A stretch of 27,583 bases of DNA from Candidatus Woesearchaeota archaeon (lineage in GTDB: Archaea > Nanobdellota > Nanobdellia > Pacearchaeales > GW2011-AR1). The notes below the pieces were generated by a model, which was not told the origin of the DNA, did no database searches, and was given only the letters and a program-made list of their open reading frames with translations. Positions within the stretch are counted from its first letter, which is position 1; each line of letters starts with the position of its first letter. The position numbers were made by a program, and so were the translations under genes. The stretch is from positions 1 to 27,583 of the forward strand of contig CAZONG010000001.1 in assembly GCA_964581315.1 (NCBI GenBank), written 5' to 3'. Below are positions 7,389 through 10,710 of this stretch, in pieces.

Positions 7389-7640
7389 TTAATCAAACCA
7401 GCCCAATTTTTGATTTCTTGGAAGTTGTTTTATTTCGTATTCGCATTTGCATGCGTCTGACTTATTTTTGCATTCTTTTGCCTTGAGAAGTTCTTTAAAA
7501 CCTTTTTTAGCGACGTATTTACTTCCCTTTCCTGACGCATGAGCTTTCATTCTTTTATCAATCTCATTTGTAACTCCTGTATAAAATGAGCCGTCAGAAC
7601 ATTCTAAAATATAAACAAACCATGGTTTAGATTTTTCCAT
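7389..7640 (-). CDS. GIY-YIG nuclease family protein (UPF0213-like, stand-alone)
   Basis: WFVYILECSDGSFYTGVTNEIDKRMKAHASGKGSKY...CEYEIKQL. Confidence 0.92.
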   Translation of the reverse strand: MEKSKPWFVYILECSDGSFYTGVTNEIDKRMKAHASGKGSKYVAKKGFKELLKAKECKNKSDACKCEYEIKQLPRNQKLGWFD

Positions 7641-7702: not shown

Positions 7703-7773
7703 CGAGGACAGGGGGAATCGAACCCCCTCCGAGCGGTCTGGAGCCGCTAATTCTACCTTTAAACTATGTCCCC
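7703..7773 (-). tRNA. tRNA-Trp (CCA), 71 nt, no intron, 3' CCA not encoded
   Basis: Cloverleaf: GGGGACA/TGTCCTC acceptor, AGCGG-CT CCA GA-CCGCT anticodon arm, GGGGG-TTCGATT-CCCCC T arm, discriminator G. Confidence 0.95.
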
Positions 7774-7836
7774 TTTAGTATTAATATTTAAAAAGTTTAA
7801 TTTAAATATCTAACTATAATCAAAGGATTAATTAAA

Positions 7837-8844
7837 ATGGGCCTTGAAAATTTACTAAAACAAAAAGGGCTTGTTTTACAAAGCCCGAATGTAGAGGATT
7901 TGTTAGCAAGAGCCAATTCTAAAAAAGAACCTTTGAAAATATTTTATGGTGAAACTTATGACAATTATGGAAATACTGTTGATAGCATGAAATATTATTT
8001 TTTTGTCTCTGAAATCTCTAAAACCTTGGAAAAAAATGGAATAAAAACAGACCCCATGATTTTGGTTGCAGATACTGCAGCATGTAGAAATGTTTCTTTT
8101 GATTTAGAAAGAAAATATATGGGTCTGGGAGACGAAAGAGTTGAGTTTATTGAAAAAATTAATGAAGAATATGGGTTAGGACTTAGAATCGTGAGGATGA
8201 GTGATTACATAAATTCAAAAGAATTTATTGATGAAAGAAAAAGAATTATTGAAATTTGTAAACCAGATTTAAAATTAATGGAATCTATTGAAAAAACAGT
8301 TCCAGAATCTAAAATTGAAGAAGAGAGAAAAAAAGGATTCATGTATTCTTTTGATGAAATTACAACAATTATGGATTTGGATATAAAAGTTGGTCCTCCA
8401 AGAGAAGATTTATATGACAATATTGCAAGAGAACTTGCAAAAAGGGAAGGAAAACTTCCCCTCATTTCAATATTTTTAACTCCAACTTTTCCACTTGGGA
8501 AAAATTGGGCTTACTTTTTTTCACAAGAAGGAATTGAAGACCATGGAATAACTGCATATAAGGCTGGAAGTAAAAGACTTCAAGACTTTAGAATTCTTCC
8601 GGGAAAAACAACTTCTGAAGAATCAAAAGATTTAATTTATAATTCTTTTTTAAGTTTGGATGATTCTCTTCCAAACCCGGTTTTAGATGTTGGCATTATT
8701 TCTCAAATGGCTGAGAGAAATCTTAAAAAAGATTTTTCTGAAATTGACCTATATGACAAATTTTATTCTGGAAAATTAAATCAAAGTGAACTTAAAGAAG
8801 AAGTTTATAACAAATTAAATAAATTTATTTTGGAGAAATTTTAA
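7837..8844 (+). CDS. Class Ic aminoacyl-tRNA-synthetase-like protein (TyrRS-like, HIGH and KMSKS degenerate)
   Basis: Colinear similarity, from memory, to archaeal TyrRS: KIFYG, ILVADTAACRN, DIKVGPPRE..NIAREL, NPVLD, and DKFYSGKLNQSELKEEVYNKLNKFI; no HxGH or KMSxS. Confidence 0.7.
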   Translation: MGLENLLKQKGLVLQSPNVEDLLARANSKKEPLKIFYGETYDNYGNTVDSMKYYFFVSEISKTLEKNGIKTDPMILVADTAACRNVSFDLERKYMGLGDERVEFIEKINEEYGLGLRIVRMSDYINSKEFIDERKRIIEICKPDLKLMESIEKTVPESKIEEERKKGFMYSFDEITTIMDLDIKVGPPREDLYDNIARELAKREGKLPLISIFLTPTFPLGKNWAYFFSQEGIEDHGITAYKAGSKRLQDFRILPGKTTSEESKDLIYNSFLSLDDSLPNPVLDVGIISQMAERNLKKDFSEIDLYDKFYSGKLNQSELKEEVYNKLNKFILEKF

Positions 8845-8845
8845 G

Positions 8846-10012
8846 ATGGAAAATAATTTAGATTTAGAAAAATTGGTTAATTCAGATTACCAAAATAAAT
8901 TAGAGTTAAAAGAAAAAGAATTAAAATATTACCCAGATAAAATGAAGGAATTTGGTTTAAAATCTATGGAGAGATTCTTGAAATATTGTCCCGATCCAAG
9001 TAAATATATGAATCTTGGAATCACTTTTGCACATAAGGATCTTGAAAAAGTTGCAGCAGCAATTGCAGAGAATAAACCTTGGGCAGTTGTTTCTGGATTG
9101 AATCCATCTGGACCATTACATTTAGGACATAAAGCAATTTTTGATGAACTTTTGTGGATGCAACAACATGGGGCAGATGTTTACATTCCATTAACAAATG
9201 ATGAGAGTTATACCGTCGGAAAAACCAAAAGTTTAGCTGAGTCAAGAAAAATTGCTTACGAGCAAGTAATTCCAAGTATTATTGCAATGGGCTTTGATTC
9301 CAAAAAAACCCACATATTTGTAGATTCAGATTATCCAGATATTTATAATGTTGCAATGGACCTTTCAAACAAAATAACTCTTAACAAAGCTTTTGGGGTT
9401 TTTGGGTTCGACAAAAAAGAAGAAGGAGAAAATCCGGGAACAATGTTTTACAGGTCAGCAGTCCAAGTGGCCCAAATACTTCTTCCACAATATGAAGAAT
9501 TTGGAGGACCAAAACCAACAATAATTCCTGTTGGAATTGACCAACACCCTTACATACTTCTTGCAAGAGATATTGCAGAAAAAAAAGGTTTTATTCCTCC
9601 TGCTGAGATTGTGACTAAATTTTTATGGGGCATTGATGGAAAAGGAAAAATGTCTGCAAGTAGACCAGAATCTGCGATTTTTTTAAATGATGATATTAAA
9701 TCTGTTATAAAAAAATTAAAATCTTCTTACACTGGTGGAAGCCCAACTGCAAAATTTCAAAAAGAACATGGGGGAATTCCAGAAATTTGTCCTATTTGGT
9801 CTTTAAGAACTTATAATTTTGAGTTGGATAACAATGTTGCAACATCCTGTTCTTCTGGGGAAGTTTTGTGCGGAGAATGTAAAAAAAAGGGAATAGACTC
9901 TACTGTTAAATATTTAGAAGACTTCCAATCTAAATTTGAAGATGCAAAAAAAAGAGTAGATGAATTTATTCTTAAAACCCCCATAAGGTCTTTTTTGAAA
10001 TATAAAATTTAA
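8846..10012 (+). CDS. trpS: Tryptophan--tRNA ligase, archaeal type
   Basis: SGLNPSGPLHLGH (HIGH), PVGIDQHPY, GKMSAS (KMSKS), YTGG...GGIPEIC and CGECKK in the anticodon domain. Confidence 0.9.
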   Translation: MENNLDLEKLVNSDYQNKLELKEKELKYYPDKMKEFGLKSMERFLKYCPDPSKYMNLGITFAHKDLEKVAAAIAENKPWAVVSGLNPSGPLHLGHKAIFDELLWMQQHGADVYIPLTNDESYTVGKTKSLAESRKIAYEQVIPSIIAMGFDSKKTHIFVDSDYPDIYNVAMDLSNKITLNKAFGVFGFDKKEEGENPGTMFYRSAVQVAQILLPQYEEFGGPKPTIIPVGIDQHPYILLARDIAEKKGFIPPAEIVTKFLWGIDGKGKMSASRPESAIFLNDDIKSVIKKLKSSYTGGSPTAKFQKEHGGIPEICPIWSLRTYNFELDNNVATSCSSGEVLCGECKKKGIDSTVKYLEDFQSKFEDAKKRVDEFILKTPIRSFLKYKI

Positions 10013-10016
10013 TTTT

Positions 10017-10523
10017 TTATAGATTATTCTCCAAATTTTTTCTTGCTTTTTTTGGAGCAGAATCTATTTCGAATAATTTTCTAAGCCCTTCCATATATAA
10101 TCCGCAAGTTGGTCCAATTAGGGGGGAGACGAGGGTTAAAATTTCAACACCGTCCTTAACTTTTTCGAAGTCAATTCTAAACTCTCCTTTTGACAGATTA
10201 GATGTTAAACTTCCCACGCTAAGAACTGTTGCATAAAGTGGGACTTGGAAAGTATCAAAGGCCAATAATTCTACCCCATACTTTCTTTTTTTTGAACTTT
10301 TATCTGTTGTTTTTGTTTTTTTGTATAAAAAATTTCTCCATTTACCATAAAAAGTAGCTGTTGGAAAGTTAATTGTTCCTCCATATATCCTTGAAGCAAT
10401 AATTCCTATTCCTCTTAGCCCAGAAGCGTAATCTGTCGCAATTCCCGTAAGAAAGGAGTATGTAAAAAGCCCCAAAGTATCTGAAAAACCCTCTTTCAAG
10501 TCCACTTTTTTGATTTTTTCCAT
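10017..10523 (-). CDS. L-alanine exporter AlaE-like membrane protein
   Basis: DTLGLFTY...SR...YGKWRNFL and LAFDTFQVPLYATVL resemble AlaE/YgaW. The start is moved to ATG 10523 because the longer ORF runs into tRNA-Asp; a TTTATAAA element lies upstream. Confidence 0.65.
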   Translation of the reverse strand: MEKIKKVDLKEGFSDTLGLFTYSFLTGIATDYASGLRGIGIIASRIYGGTINFPTATFYGKWRNFLYKKTKTTDKSSKKRKYGVELLAFDTFQVPLYATVLSVGSLTSNLSKGEFRIDFEKVKDGVEILTLVSPLIGPTCGLYMEGLRKLFEIDSAPKKARKNLENNL

Positions 10524-10573
10524 GGAAAAATTACAAAGATAGTATTTATAAATTTGAAGTTTCAGAAGTAGAA

Positions 10574-10645
10574 CGCCCACACCGGGAGTCGAACCCGGGT
10601 TTCCAGCGCGACAGGCTAGTGTCATAACCGTTAGACCATGTGAGC
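10574..10645 (-). tRNA. tRNA-Asp (GTC), 72 nt
   Basis: GCTCACA/TGTGGGC acceptor, CTAGC-CT GTC GC-GCTGG anticodon arm, CCGGG-TTCGACT-CCCGG T arm, G73. Confidence 0.95.
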
Positions 10646-10710
10646 ACGTAAGTAGTCCTTCATATCAATTTTTATTTTTAAACCTTGTGATGGTTGAGAA
10701 ATTTGTTAAT

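Follow-up and report, generated by a model that had tools for sequence, protein, structure and literature searches.

The closest relatives of the locus analysed here were described bioinformatically by Mukai, Reynolds, Crnkovic and Soll, who reported 12 instances of a module composed of ORF1, a TrpRS of the A1, A2 or A-like type, and tRNATrp (Life 2017, 7:8; PMC5370408). The idea of a heterodimer or pseudo-dimer was already raised in that work, which also reported trpR or trpS adjoining the bacterial operons and cited auxiliary TrpRS genes that confer antibiotic resistance in bacteria (PMC5370408). The present locus is a member of the TrpRS-A2/ORF1/tRNATrp module. The first-pass annotation had presented it as a candidate new system, and this claim has to be withdrawn, as the same module appears in the 2017 description. 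In both cases, a BLAST-orphan ORF lies directly upstream of a non-canonical archaeal-type TrpRS with four cysteines, the host belongs to DPANN, a canonical TrpRS is found alongside, and a tRNA-Trp is linked (PMC5370408). What is new here is the modelled fold of the ORF1 protein with its retained amino-acid triad, the fusions, the 4-nt gene overlaps, the reversal of the discriminator base, the additional TyrRS, TrpRS and tRNA-Trp genes of the genome, and the rarity of the module. A preprint from 2025 about TrpRS:tRNA(UCA) pairs in metagenomes was set aside as unrelated, since it concerns phage code-change operons.

The window, that is, the whole stretch of DNA that was analysed, comprises 27,583 nucleotides from a Candidatus Woesearchaeota archaeon. 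The features of the locus are given below, where X stands for the ORF1 protein or its gene and W for the TrpRS paralogue.

7703..7773, minus strand: module-linked tRNA-Trp(CCA), 71 nt (ARAGORN and Rfam RF00005)
7774..7836, no strand: AT-rich intergenic region of 63 nt that separates the divergent tRNA and X genes
7837..8844, plus strand: X, "ORF1" of Mukai et al. 2017, a TyrRS-fold paralogue of 335 aa
8846..10012, plus strand: W, TrpRS-A2 paralogue of 388 aa with HLGH, KMSAS and the Cys motif
10017..10523, minus strand: AlaE-like small amino-acid exporter (Pfam PF06610, E 1e-12)

The divergence of the tRNA-Trp(CCA) gene from the 335-aa frame across a 63-nt spacer, noted in the first-pass annotation, agrees with the coordinates and with ARAGORN and Rfam, and the gap of 1 nt between the stop of X and the W gene is equally borne out by an X end at 8844 and a W start at 8846. 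The spacer presumably carries the promoters of both the tRNA and X. RNA-seq runs holding the locus were searched for, and none were found. The AlaE-like gene is convergent with W, and the two stop codons are 4 nt apart. Its ORF as listed starts at 10625 and overlaps a tRNA-Asp, which makes Met35 (10523) the more probable start. The three-pair cluster of loci L005/L006 likewise begins with an AlaE gene, and the exporter is a possible accessory part of the module, although the link is weak.

The nature of X is hidden from ordinary searches. As a single sequence, it matched no Pfam or NCBIfam family, including PF00579, the NCBIfam tyrS model and PF16715, and no significant match was found in the PDB with either the single sequence or a profile of close homologues. 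The hhalign probability was 0.6% before a broader family profile was used. TyrRS and the cyclodipeptide synthase (CDPS) AlbC were reached only by this broad profile and not by the narrower searches: it matched the TyrRS of the same genome with an hhalign probability of 92.9% (E 4e-7) and, in hmmsearch, the Methanocaldococcus jannaschii TyrRS at E 1e-3. The AF2 model of X is of high confidence (pLDDT 90.8, pTM 0.91) and consists of a Rossmann catalytic fold followed by a C-terminal helical domain of the anticodon-binding type. It superimposes on Aeropyrum pernix TyrRS (2cya) with a Z of 23.4 across residues 1-335, and Foldseek returned E 3e-11 with TM values of 0.6-0.69. The second-best structural match is the N-terminal half of Leishmania TyrRS (Z 22.1), and CDPSs form the next fold class after TyrRS and TrpRS (Z 11-14.6). 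The first-pass claim that X follows archaeal TyrRS over its full length is thus upheld by the structure and the broad profile, but neither X by itself nor a set of its close homologues reveals the relationship. X is a class Ic protein descended from TyrRS, and its complete class Ic fold, as predicted by the model, is new relative to the earlier description.

The catalytic motifs of X are altered. The HIGH position is occupied by D49-S50-M51-(K52)-Y53, which agrees with the earlier remark that HIGH is replaced; X is probably unable to form an aminoacyl-adenylate because HIGH is gone. The accompanying statement that KMSKS is absent was slightly overstated: the motif is degenerate, but a remnant, K242-A-G-S245-K246 (or A243-G-S-K-R), can still be recognized, with its second Lys kept in only 47% of the family. 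The pocket itself is well preserved. In an alignment of 56 sequences with identities to X as low as 18%, nine positions are invariant (D42, D79, Y170, G186, E190, D194, G237, Y241 and R252). The triad that holds the alpha-amine of the amino acid is retained as D79, Y170 and E174, the last being Glu in 105 of 125 family members (84%) and Ala or Gln in the other 20; Y170 and E174 align with Y151 and Q155 of M. jannaschii TyrRS. Residues E190, D194, K184, K242 and R252 are kept at the ribose and phosphate positions, where E190 aligns to the Gln of GGMEQ, and Y193 is kept in 98% of the family. The third residue of G38-x-T40 is Thr or Ser in 95% of the family, although hhalign places E39-T40 in an insertion. 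A passive scaffold would have no need of these conserved pocket residues.

By its sequence, W is an archaeal-type TrpRS paralogue that appears catalytically intact. It belongs to tRNA-synt_1b (E 9e-38), scores 237 bits against TIGR00233 trpS (cut-off 177), carries HLGH at 92-95 and KMSAS at 268-272, and has its own anticodon-binding domain; Cys315, 335, 342 and 345 form a C-x19-C-x6-C-x2-C motif. Its nearest counterpart is A. pernix TrpRS, with the alpha-amine ligands retained. Activation of a Trp analogue was also considered; it is unsupported, as the indole-pocket positions resemble those of A. pernix TrpRS and the alpha-amine ligands are kept. In an IQ-TREE analysis of 71 class Ic proteins, which recovered the A1, A2 and A-like clades, W falls into a 20-row A2 clade (support 100/99) that is sister to a 17-row, entirely bacterial clade, and the canonical TrpRSs of the same genome lie in a separate clade (100/100).

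Canonical counterparts of the module's genes are already present elsewhere in the genome. A canonical TyrRS with HLGH and KMSKS is encoded on contig C2 (411 bits for NF006330, whose cut-off is 220), and so X is not the genome's TyrRS. The search for other copies that had been suggested in the first pass also found two canonical TrpRSs above the NF008927 cut-off, on contigs C9 and C13, and a second, canonical tRNA-Trp on contig C21; with the module-linked copy, the genome's tRNA-Trp genes number two. Bin contamination is an unlikely source of these genes, as the GC content is uniform across contigs (0.31 +/- 0.01).

The discriminator base is the main identity element separating bacterial from archaeal TrpRS recognition. 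The module tRNA scores 58.4 bits against the full-length RF00005 model and resembles an ordinary elongator tRNA; it has G1-C72, G2-U71 and discriminator G73, and its CCA end is not encoded. G73 is found in all five archaeal module tRNAs, namely, the one here and those of four related archaeal loci (L010, L015/L017, L016). Canonical tRNA-Trp, on the other hand, carries A73 in 10/10 cases in the family and 2/2 in the genus, as well as in the second copy of this genome. The pattern is reversed in bacteria, where all module tRNAs have A73 and the canonical copy in L043 is A1-U72/G73. A G73 module in an A73 host and A73 modules in G73 hosts suggest a naturally orthogonal TrpRS/tRNA pair. BLAST with the 71-nt tRNA was too insensitive for the tRNA-Trp of the more distant module-bearing genomes and was outperformed by a tRNA-Trp covariance model, which misses intron-containing genes in some genomes. 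The notion that each genome of the family holds two types of tRNA-Trp was dropped, as the secondary BLAST matches were tRNA-His, tRNA-Arg and tRNA-Phe. The tRNA-Trp of the window was not found to share any gene context with canonical tRNA-Trp loci in relatives. At many A2 loci no tRNA adjoins the gene pair, and in two genomes of this kind only A73 tRNA-Trp was found; therefore, the dedicated tRNA is not obligatory.

The link between X and W is conserved across archaea and bacteria, which settles the synteny check proposed in the first pass. W directly follows X in every full locus examined, in DPANN and CPR alike. The only tRNA that recurs immediately upstream of X is tRNA-Trp, which is seen there in about 20 of about 45 loci, from both domains. 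The adjacency of X and W is not due to chance. In 34 pairs, the most frequent distance from X to W is -4 nt (15 pairs), 21 pairs fall between -4 and +4 nt, and the distance matrices of the two proteins correlate with r = 0.90 in a mirror-tree comparison. Natural X-W fusions occur in three cases (L035, L049 and P0158). For the 731-aa fusion L049, AF2 with a block-diagonal alignment gave a mean pLDDT of 90.7 and a pTM of 0.60, with confident domains and a mutual arrangement that is not confident. Compared with Leishmania 3p0j, this low-confidence arrangement gave TM values of 0.32-0.35 and an rmsd of 27-29 A, and the model as it stands would count neither for nor against a heterodimer. Some clusters contain up to three tandem X/W pairs together with an opine-dehydrogenase-like gene, an M28 peptidase, a radical SAM gene and AlaE, and in 6 loci the gene after W encodes a CM_2-domain protein. 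The set assembled here comprises more than 230 proteins and 134 clusters at 50% identity, compared with the 12 instances of Mukai et al. Of the 151 genomes of the order, only 3 carry the module, and all 5 other genomes of the genus lack it; the module is rare and accessory and has spread horizontally between DPANN archaea and CPR bacteria. With such a distribution, a housekeeping role can be rejected.

The reading that we tentatively favour, while giving it somewhat less than an even chance, is a class Ic complex of X and W that works on its own tRNA-Trp, with W as the charging enzyme and X as the protein that binds or exploits the aminoacyl end. Overlapping or adjoining genes, which some lineages have fused, would ensure that the two proteins are produced jointly and at equal levels, and these would assemble into one hetero-complex on the linked tRNA-Trp. 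W would aminoacylate the G73 tRNA with Trp, and the pocket of X would then bind the aminoacyl-adenosine end. The likeliest role of this end would be that of an acyl donor, by the same logic as in CDPSs. At other loci, the tandem pairs with opine-dehydrogenase-like, M28, radical SAM and AlaE genes have a biosynthetic flavour. Both proposals of the first-pass annotation, a heterodimer with a non-adenylating subunit and an enzyme that uses Trp-tRNA supplied by a TrpRS and a tRNA of its own, are live hypotheses. A bolder form of the second is distinctly speculative and would place X, as a full-length descendant of TyrRS, at the origin of a new class of enzymes that depend on aminoacyl-tRNA; X would still grip the anticodon of the tRNA and, in a CDPS-like pocket, transfer or transform the Trp of Trp-tRNA. 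It would be fed by an insulated TrpRS/tRNATrp pair with a discriminator opposite to that of the host, i.e., a natural orthogonal pair for non-ribosomal chemistry.

The strongest competitor, possible but to be doubted, is a heterodimeric or X-assisted TrpRS that serves translation only. X would be its non-catalytic half, comparable with the C-terminal half of trypanosomatid TyrRS, and would provide anticodon binding, G73/A73 specificity or tuning of the affinity for Trp in a back-up or stress line under Trp limitation or TrpRS inhibitors. The full TyrRS fold of X, including the C-terminal domain, the fusions, whose order was taken to be that of the pseudo-dimer, the intact W and the elongator-like tRNA are all consistent with this possibility. 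The bacterial A1-type X, W and neighbouring bacterial TrpRS contain no Trp residues, as also reported by Mukai et al., who placed trpR or trpS beside the bacterial operons (PMC5370408); these two observations point to Trp-limited translation and argue against the acyl-donor reading. In addition, no canonical TrpRS was detected in the 91% complete genome of the relative G058, where no other TrpRS was seen and W may therefore serve translation. Against this stand the anticodon-binding domain of W itself, which leaves no obvious need for X, and the active-site pocket of X, which ranks with the best-conserved regions of the family where a mere scaffold should drift. Furthermore, a role in translation alone leaves unexplained the occurrence of up to three paralogous pairs per operon with tailoring-type enzymes and the TrpRS-A-like partners of X that have lost KMSKS. 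The pseudo-dimer geometry is also absent from the fusion model, although its domain arrangement is not confident at a pTM of 0.60.

HisZ is a precedent for an aaRS paralogue that has become a regulatory subunit. By analogy, X could be a ligand sensor that uses its preserved pocket and anticodon-binding domain to bind Trp or charged or uncharged tRNA-Trp and controls W or gene expression with no catalysis of its own, which we consider unlikely. The conservation of the amino-acid triad with loss of the ATP motifs fits such a sensor, as do the links to trp regulation drawn by Mukai et al. (PMC5370408), but the charged residues K184, E190, D194 and R252 at the ribose and phosphate positions suggest more than amino-acid sensing, and stoichiometric coupling and fusion to W are better suited to an enzyme subunit. 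It is very improbable that X and W are functionally unrelated and merely share an operon, W being an inhibitor-resistant auxiliary TrpRS and the tRNA adjacency incidental: resistance-conferring auxiliary TrpRS genes exist in bacteria (PMC5370408) and many A2 loci lack the tRNA, but X-W adjacency in every complete locus of DPANN and CPR, the 4-nt overlaps, fusions and correlated divergence, and the recurrence of tRNA-Trp alone upstream of X at about 20 loci in both domains argue otherwise.

Few systems of aaRS paralogues combine a clear and conserved anatomy with the lack of a known function; the module is one of these, and it has moved between DPANN and CPR. A heteromeric class Ic enzyme of X and W, if it exists, would be the first to unite members of two distinct synthetase families, and an X that consumed Trp-tRNA would represent a new tRNA-dependent enzyme class. 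A possible orthogonal TrpRS/tRNA pair is directly relevant to genetic-code engineering. What was an open annotation problem now has named residues and two defined tRNA substrates for assays.

Compared with the module of Mukai et al., the locus shows several differences. Their tRNATrp has A73 and the archaeal tRNAs here have G73, which marks a variant and does not exclude membership (PMC5370408). Their SWISS-MODEL results suggested that ORF1 lacks a Rossmann fold, whereas AF2 predicts a complete TyrRS-like fold (PMC5370408). The first spacing of their A2 motif, C-x22-C-x6-C-x2-C, is three residues longer than the x19 of W, and the x6 and x2 spacings match (PMC5370408). The pseudo-dimeric TyrRS of trypanosomatids (Leishmania major, 3p0h/3p0j) resembles X and W in having two class Ic bodies, one of them without functional HIGH and KMSKS, and the X-W fusions likewise form a chain of double length. 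Unlike its halves, X and W come from different families, one TyrRS-like and one TrpRS-like, and are normally separate polypeptides; moreover, the inactive part comes first in X-W, and its pocket is highly conserved.

Auxiliary TrpRSs, such as the indolmycin-resistant TrpRS of Streptomyces and TrpRS II of Deinococcus, share with W an intact extra TrpRS beside the housekeeping one and an accessory distribution. They act alone on normal tRNA-Trp, unlike W with X, and we know of no auxiliary TrpRS that has a TyrRS-like partner or is linked to a tRNA whose discriminator has changed. CDPSs (AlbC, Rv2275; PF16715) resemble X as Rossmann enzymes of class Ic origin without ATP motifs, and they use aminoacyl-tRNA. 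In X, Y170xxxE174 stands at the YxxxQ positions of TyrRS, and the change from Gln to Glu is the same as in CDPSs, for which we take the catalytic residues in AlbC numbering to be the Ser of GxS, Y178/E182 and a second Tyr, Y202. The broad X-family profile matches AlbC at E 1.4e-3, level with TyrRS, and look-alikes in the atlas include CDPS clusters, which serve as a lead only. The candidate nucleophile of X is Thr instead of the Ser of CDPSs; its placement is uncertain, and the alignment of T40 to the catalytic Ser is ambiguous. A CDPS consists of one Rossmann-like domain (about 230-300 aa), lacks an anticodon-binding domain and, to our knowledge, comes without its own synthetase and tRNA. X, in contrast, exceeds CDPSs by about 100 residues and has retained the anticodon-binding-type domain. 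CDPSs align only to residues ~10-218 of X, and no CDPS resembles X as closely as TyrRS does (Z 23).

The gene arrangement at this locus had been described exactly by Mukai, Reynolds, Crnkovic and Soll in Life in 2017 (PMC5370408). These authors named a new TrpRS clade with the subclades A1 (CPR), A2 (DPANN, 4-Cys) and "A-like", which they reported to occur always with an unknown "ORF1"; the bacterial operon includes tRNATrp(A73), and a canonical TrpRS coexists. They listed 12 instances, called the function unclear, and already raised the idea of a heterodimer and pseudo-dimer (PMC5370408). No later literature on the TrpRS-A/ORF1 module was found after 2017. In our tree, the A1, A2 and A-like clades were all recovered, and the TrpRS paralogue of the window (W) was placed in A2 (100/99), apart from the canonical TrpRS of its own genome. 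Since the same arrangement was published in 2017, the locus is a further member of a functionally uncharacterised module and not the candidate new system proposed in the first-pass annotation, although the joint action of W with its upstream partner X (ORF1) and the non-synthetase nature of X, also proposed there, are supported. What the window contributes is one more member of the module, whose tRNA is a G73 variant not reported before.

The module and its neighbours in the window
7703-7773, minus strand: tRNA-Trp(CCA) (ARAGORN; Rfam tRNA model, 58.4 bits, full length)
7837-8844, plus strand: X, 335 aa, starting 63 nt from tRNA-Trp on the opposite strand
8846-10012, plus strand: W, 388 aa, opening 1 nt past the X stop
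10017-10625, minus strand: AlaE-like exporter, 202-aa ORF (PF06610, E 1e-12), convergent with W and abutting it
10573-10646, minus strand: tRNA-Asp(GTC), overlapping the listed N-terminus of the AlaE-like ORF

The layout read from the sequence was thus confirmed by ARAGORN, Rfam and the ORF coordinates. Because its listed N-terminus runs into tRNA-Asp(GTC), the AlaE-like ORF probably starts at Met35 (10523). By eye, an 83-aa protein just past tRNA-Trp (7389-7640, minus strand) has the look of a small GIY-YIG (URI) domain. W belongs to the class Ic synthetases (PF00579, E 9e-38; TIGR00233 trpS, 237 bits, cut-off 177), does not reach the thresholds of the narrower archaeal trpS equivalogs, and retains both HLGH and KMSAS. 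Its likely substrate is Trp, as judged from its resemblance to a genuine TrpRS, that of A. pernix (E 1.5e-56), and the retained alpha-amine ligands.

The host assembly (596 kb, 71 contigs, 83% complete, GC uniform at 0.31) carries a canonical TyrRS on contig C2 (NF006330, 411 bits), so X is not the TyrRS of this genome. Two canonical archaeal TrpRSs are also present, 65% identical to each other; W is 34% identical to the C9 copy. Among the 28 tRNA genes, nearly all single-copy, tRNA-Trp(CCA) occurs twice (window and contig C21). ARAGORN, run with default settings, listed no tRNA-Tyr for the genome, the window included.

Canonical TrpRS paralogues of the host genome (NF008927, cut-off 478 bits)
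Contig C9, L003:1303-2415: 507 bits
Contig C13, L004:1294-2415: 493 bits

The C13 copy has VMSSS where KMSSS is expected. The TrpRS duplication seems genuine rather than produced by binning, since a complete relative (G020) has two TrpRS-type genes on a single contig. Among module-bearing relatives, the closest one, G058 (91% complete), yielded no canonical TrpRS.

X matched no family in Pfam or NCBIfam, and sequence searches of the PDB gave nothing significant. From 35 homologues, AF2 produced a confident model of X (pLDDT 90.8, pTM 0.91) that resembles archaeal TyrRS over the full length (Foldseek E 3e-11; VIA-align Z 23.4 against A. pernix TyrRS, residues 1-335), followed by the N-half of Leishmania TyrRS (Z 22.1) and archaeal and eukaryotic TrpRS (Z about 20). 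The homology comes into view at the sequence level with a broader family profile, A5 (56 sequences), which aligned with the TyrRS of the same genome (hhalign probability 92.9%, E 4e-7) and in hmmsearch matched both M. jannaschii TyrRS and the CDPS AlbC (E about 1e-3). In the TyrRS alignments, the HIGH position is occupied by D49-S-M-(K)-Y53 and the KMSKS position by A243-G-S-K-R. The A5 alignments and fold matches therefore bear out the earlier description of X as TyrRS-like along its whole length with HIGH replaced; the exception is its statement that KMSKS is absent, since a KMSKS-like remnant persists. In this model, ORF1 has the full fold of a TyrRS-like class Ic protein, which is new relative to 2017, when homology modelling pointed to a missing Rossmann fold (PMC5370408).

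Conservation among 125 X-family members, including divergent partners of A1 and A-like enzymes, is centred on the pocket. Y170, G186, E190, D194, Y241 and R252 are invariant; at least 96% of members retain D79, K184, P187, G38, Y193, D42, D49 and S122; Thr or Ser stands at T40 in 95%, and 84% have Glu at E174. In TyrRS alignments, Y170 and E174 correspond to M. jannaschii Y151 and Q155, D79 to the "LLAD"-strand Asp, and E190 to the GGMEQ Gln; in TyrRS, these residues serve as alpha-ammonium and ribose ligands. X has thus lost ATP activation, but apparently still binds an amino acid or an aminoacyl-adenosine. There is good support for X not being a synthetase, and how strongly X is conserved, and at which positions, speaks against a passive scaffold.

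At least 237 X homologues were found (134 clusters at 50% identity), none of them named; those with a named source are mostly Nanoarchaeota/Woesearchaeota, with some CPR bacteria. Wherever the contig allows (three looked-up contigs and 43 GTDB loci, from archaea and CPR bacteria), a W-type gene directly follows X, most commonly with a 4-nt overlap (15 of 34 pairs). The matrices of pairwise distances for X and for W correlate at r = 0.90, a value reached by none of 1000 permutations. The two are joined in a single chain in L035 (698 aa) and L049 (731 aa), both from Micrarchaeota, and in P0158 (778 aa). Joint action of X and W is well supported: they are obligately adjacent in archaea and bacteria alike, translationally coupled, sometimes fused, and co-divergent. 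In the AF2 model of a natural fusion, both halves are well folded and their mutual arrangement is unreliable (pTM 0.60; TM 0.33 against the Leishmania pseudo-dimer). The module is an accessory one, present in 3 of 151 sampled genomes of the order and missing from all five other genomes of the genus. A search for RNA-seq runs that cover the locus gave none.

The archaeal tRNAs linked to the module, five in all (the window, L010, L015/L017, L016), have G1-C72 and discriminator G73; A73 is found in the other tRNA-Trp of the genome, in ten canonical tRNA-Trp from genomes of the same family and in two from the same genus. All bacterial module tRNAs have G1-C72 and A73, and at L043 the canonical bacterial tRNA-Trp, 1.3 kb away, has A1-U72 and G73. 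Position 73 is the main discriminator of TrpRS recognition, G73 in bacteria and A73 in archaea and eukaryotes (PMC5370408). Consequently, in both domains the module tRNA bears the nucleotide that the host enzyme should disfavour. The archaeal G73 module tRNA is new relative to the 2017 description. Many A2 loci lack an adjacent tRNA, and two genomes of this kind yielded only an A73 tRNA-Trp. The BLAST and covariance-model searches applied can miss intron-containing tRNA-Trp genes. The canonical tRNA-Trp of a same-genus relative (L092, G076:C19:11156-11247) has a 19-nt intron.

Gene context at compared loci
L005/L006, 1-11005: AlaE, TrpRS-A-like, ORF1', opine-dehydrogenase-like, ORF1, M28 peptidase, TrpRS-A2, ORF1, TrpRS-A2, radical SAM
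L011:5808-6515, L016:8146-8844, L020:8939-9637, L031:8169-8861, L049:8163-8888, L050:8171-8893: protein following TrpRS-A2
L038:9215-10675, L047:8194-9639, L044:10089-12461, L051:2797-4587: TrpRS with editing-type domains
L007, L009/L024, L025, upstream: M15 D-Ala-D-Ala-dipeptidase-like, MR_MLE dipeptide-epimerase-like, unknown 209-aa protein, Asp/Glu racemase

Four-gene clusters (A-like/ORF1'/ORF1/A2) occur, in which the A-like enzymes keep HFGH and mostly lack KMSKS. The operon-like L005/L006 cluster, with three synthetase/ORF1 pairs and AlaE at its head, has the appearance of a biosynthetic gene cluster. Near module loci, racemases, aminotransferases and EamA or AlaE exporters are found repeatedly. 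In six loci, a protein of about 230-240 aa, absent from the window, directly follows TrpRS-A2, overlapping or abutting it; its N-terminal half has no known domain, its C-terminal domain is of chorismate-mutase type II, and it may be a further module component. At their N-termini, bacterial-type TrpRSs beside A1 modules carry YbaK-like editing domains (PF04073), either singly or in pairs, and one of these TrpRSs has a C-terminal tRNA_bind domain; to our knowledge, editing domains on TrpRS are unusual. The archaeal-type TrpRS at L051 has a weak, sub-threshold B3_4 (PheRS-editing-type) match. The genes recurring upstream of ORF1 and TrpRS-A2 in CPR Woesebacteria-type loci may reflect shared ancestry of related genomes without a functional link.

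We tentatively prefer a model in which X and W would form a class Ic hetero-complex: W would charge the linked tRNA-Trp, and the X pocket would receive the aminoacyl end, most plausibly for non-ribosomal acyl transfer. This model fits the insulated tRNA and the clusters in which several pairs stand with tailoring-type enzymes and exporters. Its main rival, a purely translational heterodimeric or X-assisted TrpRS serving as a back-up under Trp limitation, is somewhat less probable; in its favour are the ordinary appearance of the module tRNA, the absence of Trp from A1 proteins and the linkage to trpR/trpS described in 2017 (PMC5370408). Below both, X as a HisZ-like sensor is improbable, and independent functions of X and W are very unlikely. 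As for known systems, the match of X to cyclodipeptide synthases (CDPSs; Z 11-14.6) is confined to its Rossmann part, and the alignments did not confirm the placement of T40 at the CDPS serine position. The YxxxE motif of X has the same Gln-to-Glu change as the CDPSs.
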